Below are positions 12,177-64,000 of a stretch of DNA of 64,000 nucleotides, piece after piece. Both the position numbers and the translations under genes were made by a program. The notes under the pieces were generated by a model. The model did not search any database and had not been told where the DNA came from. It saw nothing but the letters and a program-made list of their open reading frames with translations. Position 1 is the stretch's first letter; each line of letters starts with the position of its first letter. Source of the stretch: an uncultured Methanoregula sp. (GTDB lineage Archaea > Halobacteriota > Methanomicrobia > Methanomicrobiales > Methanospirillaceae); contig CAZNIL010000003.1 of the NCBI GenBank assembly GCA_964573085.1, positions 1,699-65,698 on the forward strand, written 5' to 3'.

Positions 12177-13304
12177 TCAGGAGAGGTGCTCGAGCACTTT
12201 CTGCGGGTCGTACCGCAGGCTTATTAAGCGTGTCCTTCCTTTGCCTTCGCGGTAGTGCAGGTTGATGATGCGCAGCGCATCGAGCTTCTTTATAACTTCG
12301 TAAAACCGGGTGTACCCGATTTCAACCGATTGGGAAATTGTCTTGTGGACATCCCCTGCGTTCATCTCTTTCTCGTTCAGGCTTGCAAGGGCAAGGGCTT
12401 TGAGAATTTTTCTCTCCTCGTCCTTCAGGGTTTTTGTGGTAAAGGAGAGGTGCAGGTACTTTGAGATCATGTACGCTCCGCATATGTCGTCCCGGCCGAT
12501 GGTGCGCCGTGCAGCACGTTCTGCGCTCATGGTTGCCCGCTTGAGCAGGTCAATACCGACCCGCAGGTCCCCGCTCCCTTGTGTCTGTTCAACAACAAGC
12601 GAGAGCATCTCATCAGAAAGGACACCCGGGAACAACCCCTGCATGACGCGCTCATGAATGATCTCGCGGATCTCTGCCTGTTCATACGGGGGGAAGTAGA
12701 TCTCGGTCGGGCGAAAGACCGAGGTTACGCGGGCATCAACCGCTTTTGCAAGATCGACATCAAGGTCGCTGATGATTACAATCACGCCAATCCGTACGCC
12801 TTCATATGCCTCATGGGCACGCAGCAGGGTGTAGAGTACCTTGTTGATCTCGTTCTCGTACAGGAGATAGTTGGCATCATCCAGTGCGACCAGCAGGACA
12901 ATCTCTTCTTTTAAGAGGATCCGGGCGATGGCATCGAACAGCTGCTTGAACGATGTTCCTGACGCAGGCGGGAGGTGCCCGGTAAGCTTCCGGTAGATCT
13001 GGGAGAATATTGCAAACTTGGTGTTGTCGATCTGGCAGTTGACATAAACAGGGACTAGTTTCTTAGTGGCATCGGAGATCTCGGAGAAGAGTTTGCGGAC
13101 GCTCGTGGTCTTCCCGGTGCCCGGGAGCCCTTTGCATATGGAGTTAAGCGGCCGGCCCCCCCTCATGCCGGGCCGGATCTGGAACGCGAGCTCGCGCATC
13201 TGGTTCTCGCGGAACTGGAACTGCTCCGGGACATAGTCGTACTCAAAGACCTCTGGGTCGCGAAAGAGGGTCTCGTCCCACATGAGCAGGTTCTTCTTCA
13301 TCAA
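12177..13304 (-). CDS. cdc6: Orc1/Cdc6-type DNA replication initiation protein
   Basis: ...PDYVPEQFQFRENQMRELA...GLPGTGKTT (Walker A)...LVALDD (Walker B), with a C-terminal winged-helix region. Confidence 0.95.
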   Translation of the reverse strand: MMKKNLLMWDETLFRDPEVFEYDYVPEQFQFRENQMRELAFQIRPGMRGGRPLNSICKGLPGTGKTTSVRKLFSEISDATKKLVPVYVNCQIDNTKFAIFSQIYRKLTGHLPPASGTSFKQLFDAIARILLKEEIVLLVALDDANYLLYENEINKVLYTLLRAHEAYEGVRIGVIVIISDLDVDLAKAVDARVTSVFRPTEIYFPPYEQAEIREIIHERVMQGLFPGVLSDEMLSLVVEQTQGSGDLRVGIDLLKRATMSAERAARRTIGRDDICGAYMISKYLHLSFTTKTLKDEERKILKALALASLNEKEMNAGDVHKTISQSVEIGYTRFYEVIKKLDALRIINLHYREGKGRTRLISLRYDPQKVLEHLS

Positions 13305-13617
13305 TCCATTCCCCTGTTCACCAGACAGTATCTGTTGCTGTGAGGTATCACCTTACCGACACAGACCTGTTTTCAGGTATCCTCACCATTTTTTTGGTGC
13401 CGTGTCATATCAAGATCACGCATTTGATCCTAGCCGGTCAGCCCGTTAATAATATATTTCGCAAGCGACCACGTACCATAACCTGCGCCGCTGGGCAGAT
13501 GATGAAAGTTACCCCCACTGAATGGTGATGATGCAGGGGACTGATGCCACGTATGGCCGGGATAAAATTCCAGAGCTGGCGTTTCAACTTTTTTACAGCA
13601 CCCATGCCTGAACCGGT

Positions 13618-14769
13618 TCAATTGAACAGGAATTCCAGGAAACCGACCGCCTCTTTTATGCCGAACTTCCCTCCCTGCGCCTCGCGCTCTGTGAACCGCC
13701 GGGTCCTGTCTATTCCTCTTCCCCGAACAACAAACGGCACCGGGTCACGGGTATGTGTCTTCACCCGGATTGGGGTCGGATGATCGGGCAGCACGGCAAC
13801 CACACCATCGAACCCATCAAGGATCATGCCGACAACTCCGTCCACCCGTTCGATCGCCGTCACCTTCTCTTCAATGCTCCCAAGATGCCCGGCCTCATCC
13901 GGTGCTTCAATATGGATGTAAAGGAAATCAAGGTGCCGGATCGCGTCAAGCGCATACCGTGCCTTTGCCGCGTAATCAGTGTCAAGGTAGCCGGTCGCTC
14001 CCGGGACGGTAATGACTTCCATACCAGCGCAGCGTGCAATCCCGTTCAGGAGATCGACTGCCGATATGATTCCCCCTTTCTTCCCGTACTTCTTTTCAAA
14101 GTGCGGGAACGCTGGTTTGTGCCCCCCGCTCCATGGCCAGACCTGCGTCGCTAGTTGTTTGCCCGCTTTTTTCCGTGCAGCATTAACCGGATGATGAGCA
14201 AACACCCTCTGACTGGCCTCCATGCACTGCGCGAGAACCGGGGCATCCGGACCTGTTGGAAGATATCCGGCAACCGGTCTTCCGATGATATCGTGGGGGG
14301 GCGTGGAGGAGGAGCCGTTGCCATGAGGGACAACAATGAGGTTGCGGTAGGTTACGCCGGATTTAATGAAAACAGAAGGAGCCTCCTTCTGGAGTGAGGC
14401 AAGGAGCGCCGCACCTTCCGGGCTGGAGATATGCCCGGCAGAAAAGTCCTGCATCAGCCCGTCATTGATGGTGACGAGGTTGCACCGGTATGCAATATCG
14501 TCATCTTTCATGTCGATGCCCATGCTCATCGCTTCGAGTGGCCCCCTGCCCGTATAGTACGTCTGCGGGTCGTACCCGAGAATTGACATGTTTGCAATAT
14601 CGCTCCCCGCTTCAAATCCTTCGGGGATAGTGCGAAGCATACCGCAGGCACCGTCCCGCGCCATCCGGTCGAGATTCGGCGTCCGTGCGTGCTCAAGTGG
14701 CGTCTTCCCTCCAAGTTGCTCGAGCGGTTCGTCTGCCATGCCGTCCCCGCAGATCACGATGTATTTCAC
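13618..14769 (-). CDS. apgM: Cofactor-independent phosphoglycerate mutase, archaeal type
   Basis: MKYIVICGDGMADEPLEQLGGKTPLEHARTPNLDRMA...GSDIANMSILGYDP... Confidence 0.9.
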   Translation of the reverse strand: MKYIVICGDGMADEPLEQLGGKTPLEHARTPNLDRMARDGACGMLRTIPEGFEAGSDIANMSILGYDPQTYYTGRGPLEAMSMGIDMKDDDIAYRCNLVTINDGLMQDFSAGHISSPEGAALLASLQKEAPSVFIKSGVTYRNLIVVPHGNGSSSTPPHDIIGRPVAGYLPTGPDAPVLAQCMEASQRVFAHHPVNAARKKAGKQLATQVWPWSGGHKPAFPHFEKKYGKKGGIISAVDLLNGIARCAGMEVITVPGATGYLDTDYAAKARYALDAIRHLDFLYIHIEAPDEAGHLGSIEEKVTAIERVDGVVGMILDGFDGVVAVLPDHPTPIRVKTHTRDPVPFVVRGRGIDRTRRFTEREAQGGKFGIKEAVGFLEFLFN

Positions 14770-15755: not shown

Positions 15756-16628
15756 ATGTTCATCGGGATCGATCATGGCACGACCGCGATGCGCTTCGCC
15801 ACGACTTTAAAAGAGTTCAAGATATCGCGGGAAGAAGCGACCTCTTTTACCATCCCTGATCTTGCTGTATTATGCCCGCCCGATGAGATCGAGGGCATCG
15901 CGCTCTCCTATTCTATGGGGGATAACTTTTCAAAGATTACCTCGATTAATAAAGTGAACAACCGGGGGCTTGTCAGCCGCGAGGGAGCCGGAAAACATAT
16001 TGGCGGGGGGACCCGGGTCTTTGACGAAGTGAAAAAGAGCGGGATCCCTGCAGTCGTCATCCCGGGACTCCACCGCAGTACACCCTGCGATTCCCGGTTC
16101 AAGGTATATTCGCATCAGTCAAGCCCGGAGAAAGTCGGCATCGCGTATGAGGTCTGCCACGCGCTCGGGAACGATGTGATCGTCTCAGATGTGAGTTCAA
16201 ACACCGTTACCCTCCTTGTGATCAACGGAAAGATGACCGGGGCATTCGATGCCTGCATATTTGCACCCGGAACCCGGCACGGGGCACTCGATGTCGATGC
16301 AATACGGCGCATTGATGCCGGGGAGTGCACGGCAAATGAGGCATTCCAGCATGCAGGCGTGAACTTTACCGTGCCGGCGGAGGAGCGGATGCAGACCATT
16401 GCGATGTTCTCCGCGATGGAGTGCGCAGCGATGCTCCTGCTAAACAGAAAGGCGCGGATCGCTCTTGCCGGCTCCCTTGCACCGGTCATCGCTCCCGAAG
16501 TCCGCCTGCTCCTGAACCGGGAAGTTACCGTCTATGACGAGTGGTGCGCCTCCCGCGGGCTTGCACGGATTGCGCACGATGTATTCTCCGGGATACCTGA
16601 CATCCTCGGGCTCGCTGTGGATCTGTAG
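15756..16628 (+). CDS. UPF0285 / methanogenesis marker protein 12-like (ASKHA ATPase fold)
   Basis: The N-terminus MFIGIDHGTTAMRF is an actin/hexokinase-type phosphate-1 motif. The family assignment is from memory. Confidence 0.55.
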   Translation: MFIGIDHGTTAMRFATTLKEFKISREEATSFTIPDLAVLCPPDEIEGIALSYSMGDNFSKITSINKVNNRGLVSREGAGKHIGGGTRVFDEVKKSGIPAVVIPGLHRSTPCDSRFKVYSHQSSPEKVGIAYEVCHALGNDVIVSDVSSNTVTLLVINGKMTGAFDACIFAPGTRHGALDVDAIRRIDAGECTANEAFQHAGVNFTVPAEERMQTIAMFSAMECAAMLLLNRKARIALAGSLAPVIAPEVRLLLNREVTVYDEWCASRGLARIAHDVFSGIPDILGLAVDL

Positions 16629-17212: not shown

Positions 17213-17473
17213 ATGGCGCTTGCTTTAGGCTGCCGGGCAAAACCGGGAAAGTCGCGTGACAATAAGACCGGCTCGTGGCGTGTCTTCAAGCCGTTCTTTG
17301 ATCATGAAAAGTGCACAAAATGCGGGCTGTGCCAGACCATCTGTCCCGAGGGCTGCATTCATGAGACTGAGGAGGGATTTGTGGAGCCCGATTATACATA
17401 CTGCAAGGGCTGCGGGCTCTGTGCCGAGGAGTGCCCCGGGGAAGCGATCGAGATGAGACAGGAGGAGAAATAA
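17213..17473 (+). CDS. porD: Pyruvate:ferredoxin oxidoreductase, delta subunit (2x[4Fe-4S])
   Basis: CTKCGLCQTICPEGC and CKGCGLCAEECP cluster motifs; 86 aa. Confidence 0.9.
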   Translation: MALALGCRAKPGKSRDNKTGSWRVFKPFFDHEKCTKCGLCQTICPEGCIHETEEGFVEPDYTYCKGCGLCAEECPGEAIEMRQEEK

Positions 17474-17474
17474 G

Positions 17475-18629
17475 ATGCTAAAGATAACAGAAGGGTCATA
17501 CGCGGTCGCAGAAGCGGTCCGGCTCTGCCGCCCGCAGGTGATCTCCGCCTACCCGATCACCCCGCAGACCCATATCGTGGAAGCGCTTGCCGATATGGTG
17601 GCAAACTGCACGCTCGATGCCGAATACATCACGGTCGACAATGAATTGTCGGCACTCTCGGCATGCGTTGGTGCGAGCGCTGCAGGCTCCCGGGTCTATT
17701 CGGCAACAACGTCACAGGGGCTCGCGCTCATGTTCGAGGTCTGTTTCAATGCTGCAGGTATGCGCCTGCCCATTGTCATGACAATCGCGAACCGGGCAAT
17801 GGGCGCACCGCTCTCGATCTGGAACGACCAGCAGGACTCCATCTCCCTGCGGGACTCGGGCTGGCTCCAGTTCTATGCAGAAGACAACCAAGAGGCAACC
17901 GACCTCCACTTCCTCGCGTACCGTGTCGCGGAAGACCATTCGGTCCTGCTCCCTGCACTCGTCTGCTTTGACGGCTTCATCCTCTCCCATACCTACGAGC
18001 CCGTGGATATGCTCACGCAGGAGCAGGTGGACACATACCTCCCGAAATTTACTCCCTACCAGAGGCTTGACGCGGCTGACCCGATCAGCTTTGGCATGTA
18101 TGCGACGCCGGACTATTACCACGAGTTCCGGTACGAGACCGACAACGCGGCAAAGAGAGCAAGGGATGTCATAAAAAAGGCAGGAAAAGAGTTTGGCACC
18201 ATGTTTGGCAGGGACTACAGTGCCATGGTCGAGGAGTACCGGCTCGATGATGCCGAGACCGCAATCGTTGCGATGGGCTCCATCTGCGGGACGATCAAGG
18301 ACTCCATCGACGAGATGAGGGCTGAAGGAAAGAAGGTCGGCCTGCTCAGGATCCGTGTCTTCCGACCGTTCCCCTCTGAAGACATTGCAAAGGCGCTGTC
18401 GAGAGTCAAACGTGTTGCAGTACTCGATAAGAACATCTCGCTTGGCGCAAAAGGGGCAGTTGCCCTTGAGGTAAAGGATGCTCTATACGGCAGCAGCATT
18501 CCGGTCAAGGACTATATCCTCGGGCTTGGTGGCAGGGACGTGCGCAAAAGGGATATCAAGGAAATTGTATCCCTTATGGAAAAAGGGGTCGGCGACCAGT
18601 TCTACGGGTTGCGCATGGAGGTGCTGTAA
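17475..18629 (+). CDS. porA: Pyruvate:ferredoxin oxidoreductase, alpha subunit
   Basis: [32 protein letters not shown]... Confidence 0.95.
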
Positions 18630-59597: not shown

Positions 59598-60032
59598 TTA
59601 GTGGAAGACTGAACTCTCGATTAAGGTTGCACCCGATTTTGAGATTTTTTCGATCGCCTCTTCCACGTGATCGACCCGGAGGATCAGTACCGCGCCATCC
59701 TTTCCTGAATAGGCATATGAATATTCTATGTTGATTTTGGCATCCCCTAGGATCTTTGCGACCTCGTAGAGCCCGCCGGGAATATCCTTCATATGGACAG
59801 CAATAACCTCGGTAAACGCAACATTGAACCCGAGCGACGTCAGTTTCTTGTGCGCTTTTTCCGGGTGATCGACGAGTGCCCTGACAACGCCAAAGCCGCT
59901 TGCTTCAGCAATGCTGAATGCAAGGATATTGACCTTTTCCTCCCCCAGTGCATGGGCGATTGCAGCAAGCCTGCCGGGTCGGTTTTCCGAAAATACCGAT
60001 ATCTGCTTGACCACATATTTTTTCACATCCAT
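59598..60032 (-). CDS. Tandem ACT-domain protein
   Basis: 144 aa. ...ISVFSENRPGRLAAIAHALGE...INI... with a second ACT repeat. Its start overlaps the upstream PaaK stop (TAATG). Confidence 0.8.
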   Translation of the reverse strand: MDVKKYVVKQISVFSENRPGRLAAIAHALGEEKVNILAFSIAEASGFGVVRALVDHPEKAHKKLTSLGFNVAFTEVIAVHMKDIPGGLYEVAKILGDAKINIEYSYAYSGKDGAVLILRVDHVEEAIEKISKSGATLIESSVFH

Positions 60033-61333
60033 TACAATGACCTCCTGTCAACCACTTTCTTGGATTTTCCCTCATATCTCGGTAATGAACCCGGTTCGAC
60101 GAGCTCTACGTTAACATTCACATTCAGGGCATTGCGCAATTTGTGCTCAACTTTCCCGCTTATATGCATCAGATCCGTGATCTTATCAGAGAACGACTCC
60201 TTGTTGAGTTCGACCCGGACGAGCATATCATCGAGCGCCCCTTTGCGGTCGACAACGATCTGGAAATGCTGCCCGACCTCGGGGATCGCCATAAGGGCAT
60301 ACTCAACCTGCGAGGGGAACACGTTGATGCCCCGGATGATGAGCATATCATCGACCCTCCCTTGGATCCGGTCCACCCTTGGATGGGTTCTGCCGCAATT
60401 GCATGGTTCCTCATTGACCCGAGTGATGTCACCAATCCGGTACCGGATCATCGGAAGCGCTTCCTTTTGCAGAATTGTTATGGTGAGTTCCCCACTCTCC
60501 CCGGGAGCGAGCTGTTCTCCGGTCTTTGGGTCGATAATTTCGACCAGTGCAAGATCGGACCAGACATGGAACCCTTTTTGCTCGGTACATTCGGTAAACA
60601 TCGGGCCGGAGAGTTCGCTTGTACCATAGATATCATACGCTTTGATGCCCAGCCAGTCCTCGATCCGGTTCCTCATCCGTTCAGTCCAAGGTTCGGCACC
60701 GAGAATACTTGTCCGCAGGCGGGTATCTTTCCGGATGTCAACACCCATCTTTTCGGCTACTTCCCCAAGATGGAGTAAATAGGATGGGGTGCAGGCAATC
60801 GCTGTTGTACCGAGGTCCTGCATCAATTCAATCTGGCGTTCGGTATTGCCGACACTTGTAGGGATTACTGTGGCTCCGATCCTTTCTGCACCATAGTGCA
60901 ACCCCAGTCCTCCGGTGAACAACCCGTACCCGTAACTGACTTGAATCACATCTCCCCGCCCCAGTCCCAGCGATGTGAGCGCTCGTGCGAGTGATGTGGT
61001 CCAGTTGTCCAGGTCGTTCTGGGTATACCCGACAACCGTCGGTTTGCCCGTCGTCCCCGATGAGACATGATACCTCACCAGCTCGTCCTGGGTTGCTGTG
61101 AATATCTTGTCCGGGTAGTTATCCCTCAGGTCACGTTTGAACATGAAGGGCAGTAACTTCACATCAGCAAGTTCCCTGATATCATCCGGATGGACATTCT
61201 GTTCCTTCATCCGGTCGTGGTAGAATGGTGAAAAACTGTAGAGCCGGTACACAAGGCCTTTTAATAGTTTATACTGCATCCGCTGGAGTTCAGTTATTGG
61301 CAGTTCCTCAATCCGCGGGTCCCAGCATCTCAA
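60032..61333 (-). CDS. Phenylacetate--CoA ligase family protein (PaaK / F390-synthetase-like adenylate-forming enzyme)
   Basis: 433 aa. ...YHVSSGTTGKPTVVGYTQNDLDNW... (AMP-binding P-loop-like motif)...GLHYGAE...CTPSY.... Confidence 0.9.
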   Translation of the reverse strand: MRCWDPRIEELPITELQRMQYKLLKGLVYRLYSFSPFYHDRMKEQNVHPDDIRELADVKLLPFMFKRDLRDNYPDKIFTATQDELVRYHVSSGTTGKPTVVGYTQNDLDNWTTSLARALTSLGLGRGDVIQVSYGYGLFTGGLGLHYGAERIGATVIPTSVGNTERQIELMQDLGTTAIACTPSYLLHLGEVAEKMGVDIRKDTRLRTSILGAEPWTERMRNRIEDWLGIKAYDIYGTSELSGPMFTECTEQKGFHVWSDLALVEIIDPKTGEQLAPGESGELTITILQKEALPMIRYRIGDITRVNEEPCNCGRTHPRVDRIQGRVDDMLIIRGINVFPSQVEYALMAIPEVGQHFQIVVDRKGALDDMLVRVELNKESFSDKITDLMHISGKVEHKLRNALNVNVNVELVEPGSLPRYEGKSKKVVDRRSL

Positions 61334-62622
61334 AGTGTATCCCCCCGCCGATCGATGACCCGTTTGGCTTTTCCCTCGAAACGGGGAAGGGAGCCCGGTT
61401 CGACGAGCTTCACGGTTGTCCTGAGCTCGAGAACATCCCGCAGTTCTTTTACAACTTTCTTCTGGATTCGCGCAAGGTCAGTGAGTTCCCCGCTGAAATA
61501 GTCACGATTGATCTCAACGTCCACGGTCATCTCATCCAAGTGATTCACTTTGTCCACATAGACCATAAACTGATTGCCCACTTCCGGAATTTTTAACAGC
61601 ACATGTTCAATCTGGGAGGGAAAGACATTGATGCCGCGAATGACCAGCATATCATCGCTCCGCCCGGTGATCCGTGAGATCTTCTGTCCTCGTGTGCAAA
61701 GACAACCGTCTTCCATCTTCATGGTAACATCACCCGTACGGTACCGCAGGAGCGGCATTGCTTCTTTCACTAATGGCGTGACAACAAGCTCCCCACGTTC
61801 CCCGTCTCCAAGCGGCTCACCGGTCTTCGGGTCAATTATCTCGACAAGATATGCGTCGTGCCAGATGTGGAGCCCGTCTCGTTCGGGGCATTCAAATGCG
61901 ACCCCCGGTCCGAAGAGCTCGGAGAGCCCATACGAGTCAAATGCTGTGACTCCAAGACGCTCTTCAAGGGAACTGCGCATTGTCTCCGACCACGGTTCGG
62001 CCCCGAAAATACCGGTCTTCAGGCTTTCAAGAGATATATGCATCTCTTCGGCCACCTCAGAAAGGTGCATCGCATAACTGGGGGTGCAGTGGATCGTGGT
62101 GACACCGAAGTCCTTGATCATCTCAATCTGGCGTTTGGTGTTCCCTGTTGCGCTGGGAATTACAGTCATCCCGATCTTTTCTGCTCCGTAATGGAACCCA
62201 AGCCCGCCGGTGAACATACCATAGTTAACCATGTTCTGGAAGATGTCATCATCCGTAACGCCAATCATGGTCATATTTCGTGCGATCAGGTCTGCCCACG
62301 CATCAAGGTCGTTCTGCGTATACCCGACAACGGTTGGTTTGCCTGTCGTACCGGATGTTGTATGGATCCGAACAACTTTTTTGAGCGGGACAGCAAAGAA
62401 CCCGAAAGGATACCCGTTCCGCAGGTCCTGTTTTTTGGTAAACGGGACCTTTTCGATATCCTCAAGTGTCCTGATATCATCCGGGCGGACATGTGCATCA
62501 GCAAGGCATTTTTTATAAAACCCCACGTTCTGCGAATCGCGGATTGTTTTTTTCAGGCGCTTGAGCTGGAGTGCTTTGAGTTTTTCTCCATGGAGAGTCT
62601 CGGTCGTTTTATCCCAGAACAT
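61330..62622 (-). CDS. Phenylacetate--CoA ligase family protein, paralog of 60032..61333
   Basis: 430 aa. ...IHTTSGTTGKPTVVGYTQNDLDAW...GFHYGAE...CTPSY.... By eye it is about half identical to its neighbour. It has a 4-nt ATGA overlap with it. Confidence 0.9.
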   Translation of the reverse strand: MFWDKTTETLHGEKLKALQLKRLKKTIRDSQNVGFYKKCLADAHVRPDDIRTLEDIEKVPFTKKQDLRNGYPFGFFAVPLKKVVRIHTTSGTTGKPTVVGYTQNDLDAWADLIARNMTMIGVTDDDIFQNMVNYGMFTGGLGFHYGAEKIGMTVIPSATGNTKRQIEMIKDFGVTTIHCTPSYAMHLSEVAEEMHISLESLKTGIFGAEPWSETMRSSLEERLGVTAFDSYGLSELFGPGVAFECPERDGLHIWHDAYLVEIIDPKTGEPLGDGERGELVVTPLVKEAMPLLRYRTGDVTMKMEDGCLCTRGQKISRITGRSDDMLVIRGINVFPSQIEHVLLKIPEVGNQFMVYVDKVNHLDEMTVDVEINRDYFSGELTDLARIQKKVVKELRDVLELRTTVKLVEPGSLPRFEGKAKRVIDRRGDTL

Positions 62623-62987
62623 CTGTCACCTCTGTTGTCACGGTGATTCGCGTTTTTCAAATTCAAAGGATTTCATCCGCCGATGATCCCGCGGGGTCGC
62701 AAGCATGATTATTATTTTCAGAAATCCCTTCCACTGAAAAACCGAACGTCTGTTTTCCTTGAAACATCAGTACGTACTCGTGCCGTAGAGAAAAGCATTG
62801 TCCTGCATTAGCATGGCATAGATTAAAAAGAAAAAAATTCGATCCTGTTATCCCTAGCTCAAAAACCATAAACCTATCCCCATCAAAATTCCGTTCTCCT
62901 GTTCAGTGTAAATCATGTTCCTGTTGTGCATGGTTTGTATATCGCACAATATGGTTTATGTCCCTGAAATCTCTTGTAATATTTTGG

Positions 62988-63159
62988 GGGAATTCCGAGG
63001 GAATTTTTAAAAAAACCCGATATTTGGGATTTTCCCCCGTAACCGGTATATCCAGAAATACCTCATCGTGAAAACGATGCTTTAATCTGTGCGTACGATG
63101 GTAGTAATTAGATAGAAAATCCCGTGTTTTATACAAATGACGTCATCTAAAATCCCGTG
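62988..63159. repeat. Cluster of short GGGAWTTT / AAAWTCCC motifs upstream of and across the cas1-like start
   Basis: Forward copies: GGGAATTCC 62988-96, GGGAATTTTT 62999-63008, GGGATTTTC 63026-34. Reverse copies: GAAAATCCC 63115-23 (a perfect inverted repeat of 63026-34) and AAAATCCCGTG at 63116-26 and 63149-59 (an 11-nt direct repeat). Confidence 0.35.
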
Positions 63160-64000
63160 GTTTCTGGTCAGCGGTTTTGGCGCACACATAAAGTCAAGCC
63201 CATCAATGTTGATTATCGTACAGAAAAACACCACCCGGGAATTTCCCATCGATACGATCAACCACCTTCTGATTGTTGGCGGACATACTCTTCACACATC
63301 CACCATCATCCACCTCGTAAAAAAAGGTGTTTCCATATCAATTTTTGAAGCTGACGGGACCCCGGTGAGCACAATCCGCCCGTACGGGAACGATGTTCCC
63401 GAGGTTATGCGGGCGCTCCAGGTTGACGCACCCCGGCACCGGTACGCAGTGGAGCTCGCTGGAGGATCGATTAAATCGCGTTTACTCTTTTTGCAAAAAC
63501 TTGAAGAATCTTGGGGGTCGCCCCTGCTCTATGAGGGAGAGAGCGAGATCATTCATAAATCCCTTGGGGAACTGGAATATTTAATCAAACTCGAAGAGAT
63601 CCGACGCATTCACCGGCTGACCGCTGATATGTATTACGAGATCCTGTCCAGAGCGCTTCCACCGGAACTGGGATACCGGCGAAGGAGGCTTACGTCCCAA
63701 CAGGACGTCGTGAATGCAATGTTTTCTATCGGATACTCAATTCTGTATGGCAATTGTTGTGTCTCGATCCTTGGCGCTCACATGGATCCTGATATTGGTA
63801 TCCTGCATGAAGGGCAGGGGGGGCTCGTATATGACCTGATCGACCCGTTCAAAGCTGGAATGATCGACGAAACGGTTATCAGGGTCGCTGCAGAAAGGAT
63901 CAGTCCTGACGACTTTGAAATAAGTGGTAGCCGTTGTATCCTTTCAGATGAACTTGTACGGAAACTGATTAACCTGTTCAAAACTTCGATCCGTGTCGGG
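63137..64000 (+). CDS. cas1: Cas1-family protein, N-terminal 288 aa (partial; continues past the window end)
   Basis: The frame is open from ATG 63137 (in-frame TAG at 63113-15) to 64000 and is not in the supplied track. It has an N-terminal ...REFPIDTINHLLIVGGHTLHTSTIIHLVKKGVSISIFEADGTPVSTIRP.... The helical domain has ...RRLTSQQDVVNAMFSIGYSILYG...HMDPDIGILHEGQGGLVYDLIDPFK.... Confidence 0.75.
   Translation, partial: MTSSKIPWFLVSGFGAHIKSSPSMLIIVQKNTTREFPIDTINHLLIVGGHTLHTSTIIHLVKKGVSISIFEADGTPVSTIRPYGNDVPEVMRALQVDAPRHRYAVELAGGSIKSRLLFLQKLEESWGSPLLYEGESEIIHKSLGELEYLIKLEEIRRIHRLTADMYYEILSRALPPELGYRRRRLTSQQDVVNAMFSIGYSILYGNCCVSILGAHMDPDIGILHEGQGGLVYDLIDPFKAGMIDETVIRVAAERISPDDFEISGSRCILSDELVRKLINLFKTSIRVG

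Follow-up and report, generated by a model that had tools for sequence, protein, structure and literature searches.

Why does a gene of the Cas1 family lie at the end of a long stretch of archaeal chromosome in which nothing else looks related to CRISPR? CRISPR adaptation is defined by the enzyme Cas1, and much attention in the field goes to how this enzyme evolved from casposon integrases. The stretch analyzed here (the window) comprises 64,000 nt from an uncultured Methanoregula sp. The original prediction, made from the letters of the window, left three options open: a cas operon that begins with this gene, a casposon that ends with it, or a stand-alone Cas1.

A Cas1-family gene with a predicted two-domain fold

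The gene occupies the 3' edge of the window.

63137..64000, + strand: cas1-solo (group 1) gene, first 288 of 311 codons (translation; Pfam and NCBIfam Cas1 matches; contigs L094-L097; dN/dS)

As predicted, the reading frame that starts at ATG 63137 stays open to base 64000, a length of 288 codons, and the translation agreed with every peptide that had been quoted. The start is unambiguous, because an in-frame TAG is present at 63113-63115 and no further start codon lies between it and ATG 63137. The gene had been thought to be missing from the ORF track for want of a stop codon, and the list does omit ORFs that run off the window end. The contigs L094-L097 are 99.9% identical to the window at the nucleotide level and encode an identical protein across the 288 residues; the full-length protein of 311 aa was read from them, and the end of cas1-solo is predicted ~72 nt past the window, roughly at position 64072. 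A weak CARF match was also seen.

The assignment to the Cas1 family was examined with profile searches and the match was far beyond chance. PF01867 (Pfam) gave E=5.4e-47 and a score of 160.7 bits (cut-off 22.3), the match spanning positions 3-282 of the 283 in the profile, and TIGR00287 (NCBIfam) gave 131.2 bits against a cut-off of 71.7. The nine subtype-specific Cas1 models all scored below their cut-offs (best, cas1_CYANO, 82.9 bits against 385). In pairwise comparisons the similarity to a casposase (E=5.8e-10) was weaker than that to A. fulgidus Cas1 (E=2e-15). The AF2 model of a 93%-identical orthologue (pLDDT 87.9, pTM 0.87) was compared by Foldseek with Cas1 and casposase structures, for example 4n06 (A. 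fulgidus Cas1), 7cr6 (Synechocystis Cas1), and 6opm (M. mazei casposase), with TM 0.76-0.83. According to this model the full two-domain Cas1 fold is kept, with an N-terminal beta-sandwich and a C-terminal alpha-helical domain, in agreement with the layout first read from the sequence, and no additional C-terminal domain is present.

The gene stands outside CRISPR-Cas loci and casposons

No CRISPR-like repeats were detected in the 64-kb window, and no cas family besides Cas1 was found among its 66 predicted proteins, a set that leaves out small ORFs overlapped by longer ones; the statement that nothing upstream is CRISPR-related was thus upheld. The window stops inside the gene, as would also be seen if an ordinary cas operon or adaptation module started with this gene and continued beyond the edge, and a look downstream had been fixed beforehand as the observation that could overturn the reading of an isolated gene. 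In the true downstream sequence (8.6 kb, from the 99.9%-identical contigs) a convergent acylphosphatase gene is followed by genes for an alpha-solenoid protein of 1187 aa, phosphoglucomutase, MobB, and DUF5806. This sequence contains no cas2, cas4, polB, CRISPR array, terminal inverted repeats, or cas/defence or PADLOC match. The same flanks and arrangement were found in 87/87 related loci, and in these loci (1.5 Mb) no cas2/cas4 and no CRISPR arrays were detected. The sole locus flagged for an array candidate, L049, carries tandem satellites of 27, 57, and 88 nt without spacers, and the candidate was rejected. With every subtype-specific model failing as well, we give virtually no credence to the cas operon; it is refuted, provided that the source genome has the same structure as its 99.9%-identical population relatives.

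A casposase at the end of a casposon would likewise be a Cas1 without CRISPR context, and Foldseek does match the model to the casposase 6opm with TM of about 0.8. Against this, no polB domains were found among the called genes on either side, no inverted repeats in L094:1-10000, and no target-site duplications; the inverted-repeat pairs in L001, L005, and L088 are weak and non-conserved. The gene sits at a fixed chromosomal site with housekeeping flanks in the 87 loci and co-diverges with them, the catalytic tetrad conserved in casposases is missing, the sequence is closer to A. fulgidus Cas1, and the model lacks an extra C-terminal domain. A casposon end is hardly conceivable, and the genomic context refutes it. 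The 8.6 kb downstream is without cas2, cas4, polB, array, or inverted repeats, so the observation fixed beforehand as a refutation did not turn up. Of the three original options, the evidence selects the stand-alone Cas1.

Genomic neighbourhood

59598..62622, - strand: ACT-PaaK-PaaK cluster, divergent, context only (Pfam and NCBIfam matches)

The upstream neighbours had been described as PaaK/ACT genes on the other strand, and they proved to be two PaaK-type AMP-binding ligases and an ACT-pair protein on the minus strand. This ACT-PaaK-PaaK synteny was found in 84 loci; it holds within the Methanoregulaceae and not in other families, Methanospirillum, Methanofollis, and Methanocorpusculum having other genes upstream. 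The PaaK/ACT neighbourhood is therefore family-level synteny only. The linkage of cas1-solo to the acylphosphatase and the solenoid protein spans three families. In Methanoregulaceae the gene is monocistronic: its upstream neighbour is divergent and its downstream neighbour convergent. A function could not be derived from operon partners, because the conserved neighbours are convergent or divergent and leave no operon partner to guide it.

Searches of Pfam, NCBIfam, and PADLOC assigned the linked protein (1185-1189 aa) to no family. AF2 models it as an all-alpha solenoid with generic TPR/HEAT matches only (TM 0.1-0.2). The solenoid gene is absent beside cas1 in Methanolinea-type and a few other Methanoregulaceae loci, so the protein is a non-obligate neighbour.

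Membership in Cas1-solo group 1

Cas1-solo group 1 was described by Makarova, Wolf & Koonin in 2013, as relayed in PMC4046053 and PMC9939771. Krupovic et al. in 2014 characterized it as the Cas1-solo of Methanomicrobiales, with an incomplete active site and without CRISPR-cas association (PMC4046053). By BLASTP the protein was 45-51% identical (265-299 bits) to the published proteins of M. boonei, M. marisnigri, M. petrolearius, and M. palustris, whereas the nearest canonical Cas1 reached 23-27% identity (35% in a single partial match of 141 residues) and 77-103 bits. In a search of 1.84 billion representatives the family was set off by a gap in score from 178 to 126 bits, and in a distance-based NJ tree the solo clade was monophyletic (19/19 tips). 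Every named member belongs to the Methanomicrobiales, the named divergent ones being Methanofollis, Methanospirillum, and Methanocorpusculum. The 80 genome loci come from Methanoregula, Methanolinea, Methanoregulaceae, or Methanomicrobiales MAGs, save a few with phylum-level labels and two contigs, which are probably mis-binned since they are short and syntenic. The gene belongs to Cas1-solo group 1, a group to which no function is assigned in the literature searched.

The former active site

63605..63616, + strand: remodelled motif R157-I-H-R160, canonical G-[IL]-E-G (residue counts in representatives)
63611..63613, + strand: His159, codon CAC, at the catalytic Glu position (E. coli E141 equivalent; alignments to 4n06 and 7cr6)
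63806..63808, + strand: His224, codon CAT, E. coli H208 equivalent, present here but unconserved clade-wide (alignment)
63833..63844, + strand: Asp233..Asp236, E. coli D218/D221 equivalents, retained (alignment)

Residues were counted in an alignment of 121 close relatives and in 18 solo versus 57 canonical representatives. In pairwise alignments to 4n06 and 7cr6, IHR pairs with the canonical IEG motif, so that His159 replaces the catalytic Glu. The corresponding column holds H/S/N/Y and never E across the 121 sequences, and Glu is present in 57/57 canonical versus 0/18 solo representatives; the suspicion that the Glu was not conserved proved right. The full tetrad (E. coli E141, H208, D218, D221) was not found, Glu being absent in all members examined, whereas E/H/D/E is complete in all 57 canonical representatives. 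The His and the D..D of the metal site, which the original prediction had reported as present, are indeed His224, Asp233, and Asp236 in this protein. The His224 column reads H105/N8/Y5/R2 among the 121 close relatives and H/T/F/N/S/A/P/Y in divergent solo representatives, against H in 57/57 canonical ones. D233 is invariant in the 121 sequences and the matching canonical column is D in 57/57, while position 236 is E76/D42/G3 in the 121 sequences and its canonical equivalent is E in 57/57.

The positions on both sides of the lost Glu are remodelled as well. Position 157 is R in 18/18 solo representatives and G in 51/57 canonical ones, and position 160 is R in 11/18 versus G in 53/57. These Arg substitutions at the dead active site are not mentioned in the literature searched. 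The new Arg residues may form salt bridges to the retained Asp233 and Asp/Glu236. Next to the lost Glu, the residues E154, D164, M165, and E168 are clade-specific and do not vary. Relative to canonical Cas1, the loop that follows the His has lost 4 residues in length. Solo and canonical Cas1 have the structural-motif residues Y166, R183, D190, N193, Y200, G221, D233, and D244 in common.

Upstream spacer and conserved element

62623..63136, no strand: divergent intergenic region from PaaK to cas1-solo, 514 nt, AT-rich (GC 0.38)
63064..63079, + strand: clade-specific palindrome CATCGTGAAAACGATG, overlapping the conserved element (window and its closest relatives L001-L003 and L009 only)
63072..63087, + strand: gene-specific conserved element AAACGATGCTTTAATC, about 65 nt before the ATG (motif search, anchored profile)
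63100..63113, + strand: GGTAGTAATTAGAT box, putative TATA region, about 25-35 nt before the ATG (Methanoregula conservation)

The AT-rich spacer of 514 nt noted at first was recovered at 62623-63136, with a GC of about 0.38 versus 0.50-0.56 in the flanking genes. Within it, conserved blocks span about 62766-62822 and 62940-62959. Rfam yielded no family for the spacer (best match 15 bits, E=0.69), and its small ORFs gave no Pfam match.

The 16-nt AAACGATGCTTTAATC has a single match in the 64-kb window, even at 2 mismatches. Its core AACGATGNNTTRAT was found in 65/93 loci, once per locus and always on the + strand 50-85 nt upstream of cas1-solo. In the anchored profile, information reaches about 2 bits/position within the core, and conservation is absent upstream of it. 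That the element is a generic promoter consensus was ruled out, as it occurs once in the 64-kb window and once per roughly 20-kb locus. A weaker information peak, +26 to +35 from the core, corresponds to GGTAGTAATTAGAT, which is conserved among Methanoregula loci and which, by analogy with archaeal promoter geometry, may be the TATA region of the promoter. Such a placement would imply a leaderless or short-leader mRNA. The upstream element itself may act as a promoter or operator.

Selection, net charge, and the possibility of activity

Group 1 has been termed "probably vestigial" (PMC9755687), and an incomplete set of catalytic residues is what a decaying cas1 from a lost CRISPR-Cas locus, without current function, would be expected to have. 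The sequences point the other way. The dN/dS was 0.08-0.14 (dS being saturated in deeper comparisons), hundreds of sequences keep the frame intact over its full length, and the invariant residues number dozens. The fold prediction is a confident one, and both the upstream element and, across the archaeal order, the locus are conserved. No sign of horizontal transfer was observed: the locus is fixed in 87 loci and cas1-solo co-diverges with its neighbours (rho 0.44-0.79). A decaying remnant is thus very improbable; the gene is under strong purifying selection and is not vestigial.

The net charge is -5.6 in solo proteins versus +11.0 in canonical ones, the canonical set coming from diverse organisms, and the background is about -1 in a control of 51 window proteins only. 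Compared with the strongly basic canonical Cas1, Cas1-solo carries an inverted, net-acidic charge. This net-acidic character of group 1 is not mentioned in the literature searched.

Strong purifying selection would also be expected if the protein were still an active nuclease or integrase that, through rearranged residues, served chromosomal DNA repair or recombination without CRISPR. The rearranged set could combine Asp233 and Asp/Glu236 with either His159 or one of the invariant residues E154, D164, and E168. D233 is invariant and position 236 is acidic in 118/121 sequences, His224 is retained in about 87% of Methanoregulaceae members, and E154, D164, and E168, which with M165 are the invariant clade-specific residues beside the lost Glu, are on the same helix. 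An alternative catalytic constellation may therefore exist, and Krupovic et al. left alternative catalysis open as the less likely option (PMC4046053). However, the Glu position is free to vary (H/S/N/Q/Y/T/F/L/D), and other genera have F/T/N/S/A/P/Y at the His position, a pattern unexpected for catalytic positions. Bulky Arg takes the place of the pocket glycines, the protein is no longer basic like DNA-processing Cas1, and D164 and E168, at i+5 and i+9 from the lost Glu, would face another side of the helix. We regard an active enzyme as unlikely. Judged by these residues, catalysis is probably absent.

A proposed role for the protein

The strong purifying selection and, in Methanoregulaceae, the dedicated upstream element, despite the loss of the active site, make an exapted, non-catalytic Cas1 the most likely explanation, and we are largely convinced that this is a chromosomal cas1-solo group 1 gene of that kind, outside CRISPR-Cas modules and casposons. 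It is a single Cas1 derivative, vertically inherited within the Methanomicrobiales and probably transcribed independently. Its predicted two-domain fold is kept, the canonical integrase active site is lost, and the two flanking glycines have become arginines. Such a pseudo-integrase would bind a specific nucleic-acid site or a protein partner without cutting or joining DNA, and this binding would serve a lineage-specific cellular role. A binding role for the cas1-solo protein is thus suggested.

A more detailed version of the exapted Cas1 is put forward tentatively, and we would not bet on it at even odds. The protein may be a domesticated pseudo-integrase, present in all or most Methanomicrobiales and strongly selected for a cellular role that is not CRISPR. 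Arginines would fill the metal site, the integrase surface would be lost, and the target might be its own upstream AAACGATG-NN-TTAATC element or a partner such as the linked TPR/HEAT-like solenoid.

Group 1 is the one branch of Cas1 that was set aside in 2014, since it looked inactive (PMC4046053). The comparative data argue for a selected, order-wide gene across the clade and not a vestigial one, a view supported by the purifying selection, the fixed locus, the dedicated cis element, the Arg-rich dead site, and the inverted charge. If the domesticated pseudo-integrase is true, no earlier case would be on record in which the CRISPR integrase fold was exapted to serve as a non-catalytic cellular factor. 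If a function is found, the gene would show cleanly how an integrase from immunity or transposition can be reused by the cell as a pseudoenzyme.

Comparison with known systems

Compared with canonical type I/III Cas1, the protein has the two-domain fold in common (TM 0.76-0.83) and scores above the cut-off of the generic profile. It differs in that the catalytic Glu is missing, the His is unconserved, and Cas2, an array, and a subtype signature are all lacking.

Casposases (Cas1-solo group 2) have four strictly conserved catalytic residues and belong to mobile elements with polB, TIRs, and TSDs and a patchy distribution (PMC4046053). Both they and cas1-solo are Cas1 homologues outside CRISPR loci, in archaea of the class Methanomicrobia, and the core folds agree with a TM of about 0.8. 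Unlike casposases, cas1-solo has neither the full tetrad nor polB, TIRs, TSDs, or a patchy distribution, and its flanks are constant in 87 loci.

With the published group 1 the gene shares the incomplete catalytic set, the lack of cas/CRISPR neighbours, the restriction to Methanomicrobiales, and vertical inheritance, and the hallmark motifs GFGAHIKS, YEGE, and LDEIRRLxxLxxDMYYEI are identical. There is no difference in kind: this sort of gene has already been described, and the locus adds a new orthologue from an uncultured Methanoregula lineage and nothing new in kind. What our analysis adds beyond the papers is the purifying selection, the acylphosphatase/solenoid linkage, the upstream element, the Arg substitutions, and the charge inversion.

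Assignment of the gene to Cas1-solo group 1

The original prediction placed a Cas1-family gene at the 3' edge of the window, and the profile searches bear it out. The product of this gene (cas1-solo) matches PF01867 of Pfam with an E-value of 5.4e-47 over nearly the entire profile and scores 131 bits against TIGR00287 of NCBIfam (cut-off 71.7); the subtype-specific Cas1 models of NCBIfam (9/9) all stay far under their own cut-offs. On these matches we regard the assignment to Cas1 as secure. The closest solved structure is the Cas1 of Archaeoglobus fulgidus (4n06, E=2e-15).

Starting at ATG 63137, the frame runs without a stop for 288 codons until the window ends, and every peptide quoted in the prediction is present in its translation. 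The gene is indeed missing from the ORF track, a mechanical list that does not report ORFs running off the window end. Its start is unambiguous because an in-frame TAG lies at 63113-63115 and no other start codon stands between it and the ATG. Searching for exact copies of the neighbouring PaaK protein led to four contigs (L094-L097). They differ from the window at 12 positions, without gaps, over its last 12 kb (99.9% identity) and run 8,622 nt beyond its end. Their Cas1 has 311 aa and is identical to that of the window over all 288 encoded residues, therefore the window gene would end about 72 nt beyond the window. Public gene calls for the same cas1 (L094 8551-9417 (-), also L095-L097) start at the internal Met24 and give 288 aa, which removes the conserved N-terminal IPWFLVSGFGAHIKS motif of the full 311-aa ORF.

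Relatives of about 310 aa number more than 700, and those that bear names are Methanoregula or Methanoregulaceae. The family is discrete: among 1.84 billion representative proteins searched with a profile, its full-length members score between 449 and 178 bits, and ordinary Cas1 proteins reach no more than 126 bits. In a distance tree 19 family sequences form a single clade with no canonical Cas1 inside, the nearest canonical proteins being generic type I/III-style Cas1. The supplementary alignment of PMC4046053 lists group 1 members from Methanoregula boonei, M. formicica, Methanosphaerula, Methanospirillum, Methanoculleus, Methanoplanus, and Methanocorpusculum, and the hallmark motifs are common to all of these and the clade of the window. 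Since the window protein is 45-51% identical to four published group 1 sequences (265-299 bits) but only 23-27% identical to the closest canonical Cas1 (35% over one partial 141-residue match; 77-103 bits), its sequence establishes it as a member of Cas1-solo group 1, a described clade. A genome scan gave 80 further loci, nearly all from Methanoregula, Methanolinea, Methanoregulaceae or Methanomicrobiales MAGs, a few with a phylum-level label only; divergent representatives bearing names come from Methanofollis, Methanospirillum, and Methanocorpusculum. Two short contigs, L051 (2.6 kb, binned as Draconibacterium) and L052 (5.2 kb, binned as Thermoplasmatota), show the full Methanoregula-type synteny of PaaK, cas1-solo, acylphosphatase, and solenoid gene and are probably mis-binned.

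Genomic surroundings

The prediction had left open whether the gene begins a cas operon, ends a casposon, or stands alone. On L094-L097 it is followed by genes for an acylphosphatase, which is convergent and shares 17 nt with the 3' end of cas1-solo, a protein of 1187 aa without Pfam domain, phosphoglucomutase, MobB, and DUF5806. This downstream stretch contains neither CRISPR-like direct repeats nor inverted repeats, and its products match no cas or defence family, so a cas2 gene and array immediately downstream were sought and not found. The start of a cas operon is accordingly rejected as highly improbable. The end of a casposon was rejected too, with neither polB nor a terminal inverted repeat in the same stretch, and we give it hardly any credence. 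The stand-alone option is the one that held.

A few kb downstream of cas1-solo on one Methanomicrobiales chromosome (L049), three tandem satellite arrays were seen, with periods of 57, 27, and 88 nt (13664-14005, 15818-16291, and 17265-17879) and units up to 92-95% identical. They were rejected as CRISPR arrays because they hold no unique spacers.

The description of the upstream side stood as well. The minus strand encodes two PaaK-type ligases and an ACT-pair protein, and a 514-nt AT-rich spacer comes next (GC about 0.38 vs 0.50-0.56 in the flanking genes); no CRISPR-like repeats were found in the 64-kb window and no other cas family among its 66 predicted proteins. The rest of the window is core chromosome (EF-1alpha, aminoacyl-tRNA ligases, Orc1/Cdc6, PorA, S-layer proteins). 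An ORF with a GLPGTGKT Walker A motif (12177-13304 (-)) is probably the Orc1/Cdc6 replication protein of the NCBIfam summary, and its upstream intergenic region of 313 nt (13305-13617) is a possible replication origin. PADLOC matched proteins of the window to mad2 (6.6e-19), to two pVip/radical-SAM models (about 1e-8), and weakly to CARF3 (5.7e-4); the desaturase-like match is ORF 1-1299. The weak CARF match is of possible interest since the casposon cas1-solo gene of M. mazei is regulated by a CARF protein (PMC7465815).

Active site and charge

The catalytic Glu had been described as not obviously conserved. In alignments with 4n06 and the Synechocystis Cas1 (7cr6), the catalytic I-E-G aligns to I-H-R, so that His159 (codon 63611-63613) occupies the Glu position; His224, Asp233, and Asp236 of the metal site are present, as had been noted. 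Over the query and the 120 relatives nearest to it, the Glu column holds H (103), S (13), N (2), and Y (1); Q and T occur as well in the per-sequence listing, and E nowhere. In the His column stand H (105), N (8), Y (5), and R (2). Asp233 is invariant and position 236 is E (76), D (42), or G (3). The four catalytic columns are E, H, D, and E in 57/57 canonical representatives, the Glu is present in 0/18 solo representatives, and outside Methanoregulaceae the His column of the solo proteins is F, T, N, S, A, P or Y. The contrast at the catalytic columns is absolute across the family boundary.

The motif around the lost Glu changes from canonical l-R-G-[IL]-E-G to I-R-R-L-H-R. Position 157 is Arg in 18/18 solo and Gly in 51/57 canonical proteins, the canonical Gly at position 160 is Arg in 11/18 solo proteins, and arginines 115, 172, 182, and 266 are invariant and clade-specific. 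Mean net charge is -5.6 in solo vs +11.0 in canonical proteins, and lysine content is halved. A Cas1-solo orthologue has a charge of -7 overall and -9 in its C-terminal domain, against a window average of about -1 per 300 aa; since it is more acidic than 84% of the window proteins, the shift is largely a property of the clade and not of proteome background alone. No description of the arginine remodelling at the dead site or of the charge shift was found in the literature searched.

The main rival explanation is a residual nuclease with a rearranged site, which could draw on the retained acidic pair (Asp233 and Asp/Glu236) and on E154, D164, and E168, invariant and on the same helix. The Glu and His columns vary freely, however, and we consider this explanation unlikely.

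Selection, fold, and conservation of the locus

Group 1 has been called "probably vestigial" (PMC9755687). The dN/dS of the window gene is 0.08-0.14 against orthologues at 74-93% protein identity. The AlphaFold2 model of a 93%-identical orthologue is confident (pLDDT 87.9, pTM 0.87); both of its domains can be superposed on Cas1 and casposase structures (TM 0.76-0.83), and it has no extra domain. The convergent acylphosphatase gene follows in 87/87 related loci, the PaaK pair lies upstream in 84 of 87, and the divergence of cas1-solo correlates with that of every neighbour (Spearman rho 0.44-0.79). Selection, fold, fixed locus, and co-divergence contradict the label, and a vestigial gene is very improbable.

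Sequence elements upstream of the gene

Features upstream of cas1-solo
63072-63087 (+), gene-specific element AAACGATGCTTTAATC, unique in the 64-kb window, about 65 nt before the gene
63064-63079, palindrome CATCGTGAAAACGATG, overlapping the gene-specific element in the clade of the window
63100-63113, weaker TAATT box after the gene-specific element, about 30 nt before the start codon
62940-62959 (-) (L094 877-902, 1699-1724, 9664-9689), 26-nt element ATAAACCATATnnTGCnATA, unique in the 64-kb window
about 62766-62822, spacer block of about 60 nt, CATCAGTAC..CTCGTGC..AAAAGCATTGTC.TGCA.TAGCATGGCAT, common to loci L001, L003, L009, and L010

Each of 65 loci has a single copy of the core AACGATGNNTTRAT of the gene-specific element, in every case 50-85 nt upstream of cas1-solo. 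The element has the pattern AAACGATG-NN-TTAATC and sharp boundaries, and it is absent at the Methanospirillum locus. We infer a putative operator or activator site ahead of a putative TATA box. The 26-nt element occurs three times in intergenic DNA of the locus, once in the cas1-PaaK spacer facing PaaK and twice beyond DUF5806, and may act as a common regulatory site or as a promoter element. The spacer block, which has no Rfam match, could serve the divergent PaaK operon as leader or operator; Methanolinea-type loci have similar CATTGTCA..CATGGCATGG strings ahead of cas1.

Neighbourhood across Methanomicrobiales

Outside Methanoregulaceae the genes upstream of cas1-solo are unrelated. In Methanospirillum (L088 1-8915) it lies 51 nt after nusA in the same direction, at the tail of an rpoB'/B''/A'/A''-L7Ae-nusA cluster, and may be co-transcribed with this transcription-machinery operon. 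The nearest called gene upstream in Methanofollis is an arginine deiminase on the opposite strand; in Methanocorpusculum an archaemetzincin precedes cas1-solo and a GTPase follows it.

The acylphosphatase and a large solenoid protein are kept as a downstream pair in Methanospirillum and Methanofollis. The solenoid gene forms an operon with the acylphosphatase beside cas1-solo in Methanoregula, Methanospirillum, and Methanofollis.

Solenoid gene (1185-1189 aa)
L094 4714-8277 (+)
L001 11216-14773 (-)
L088 9184-12753 (-)

The protein matches no Pfam, NCBIfam or PADLOC family, and its AlphaFold2 model is all-alpha, with about 65 helices and generic TPR/HEAT structural matches only. Because the 3' ends of cas1 and the acylphosphatase gene overlap, their linkage could have been frozen neutrally, and the solenoid gene does not adjoin cas1-solo in Methanolinea-type and a few other Methanoregulaceae loci; we therefore place little functional weight on this association and find the gene-specific upstream element more informative.

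Proposed role and relation to known Cas1 groups

Cas1-solo would be an exapted, non-catalytic Cas1 in which the new arginines neutralise the retained Asp233 and Asp/Glu236, and whose role would be to bind a particular nucleic-acid site or protein partner, with no integration of DNA. This reading fits best since the fold is intact, the Glu always and the His sometimes lost, the pocket altered by Arg substitutions, and the overall positive charge gone, and since selection is strong, descent vertical, Cas2, array, and polB lacking, and the upstream sequence dedicated to the gene. We hold the identity and the exapted, non-integrase reading, taken jointly, to be quite probable; granting both, complete loss of catalysis is somewhat more likely than not. 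That group 1 is a domesticated Cas1 pseudo-integrase with its own operator is a tentative proposal that falls somewhat short of probable.

This kind of gene was published in 2013-2014; new here is an orthologue from an uncultured Methanoregula lineage. Group 1 was reported from Methanomicrobiales only, with no sign of horizontal transfer and with an incomplete active site in every member, and was passed over for group 2, later the casposons (PMC4046053, PMC9939771). The comparative features described here make the neglected question of what the clade does approachable by experiment.
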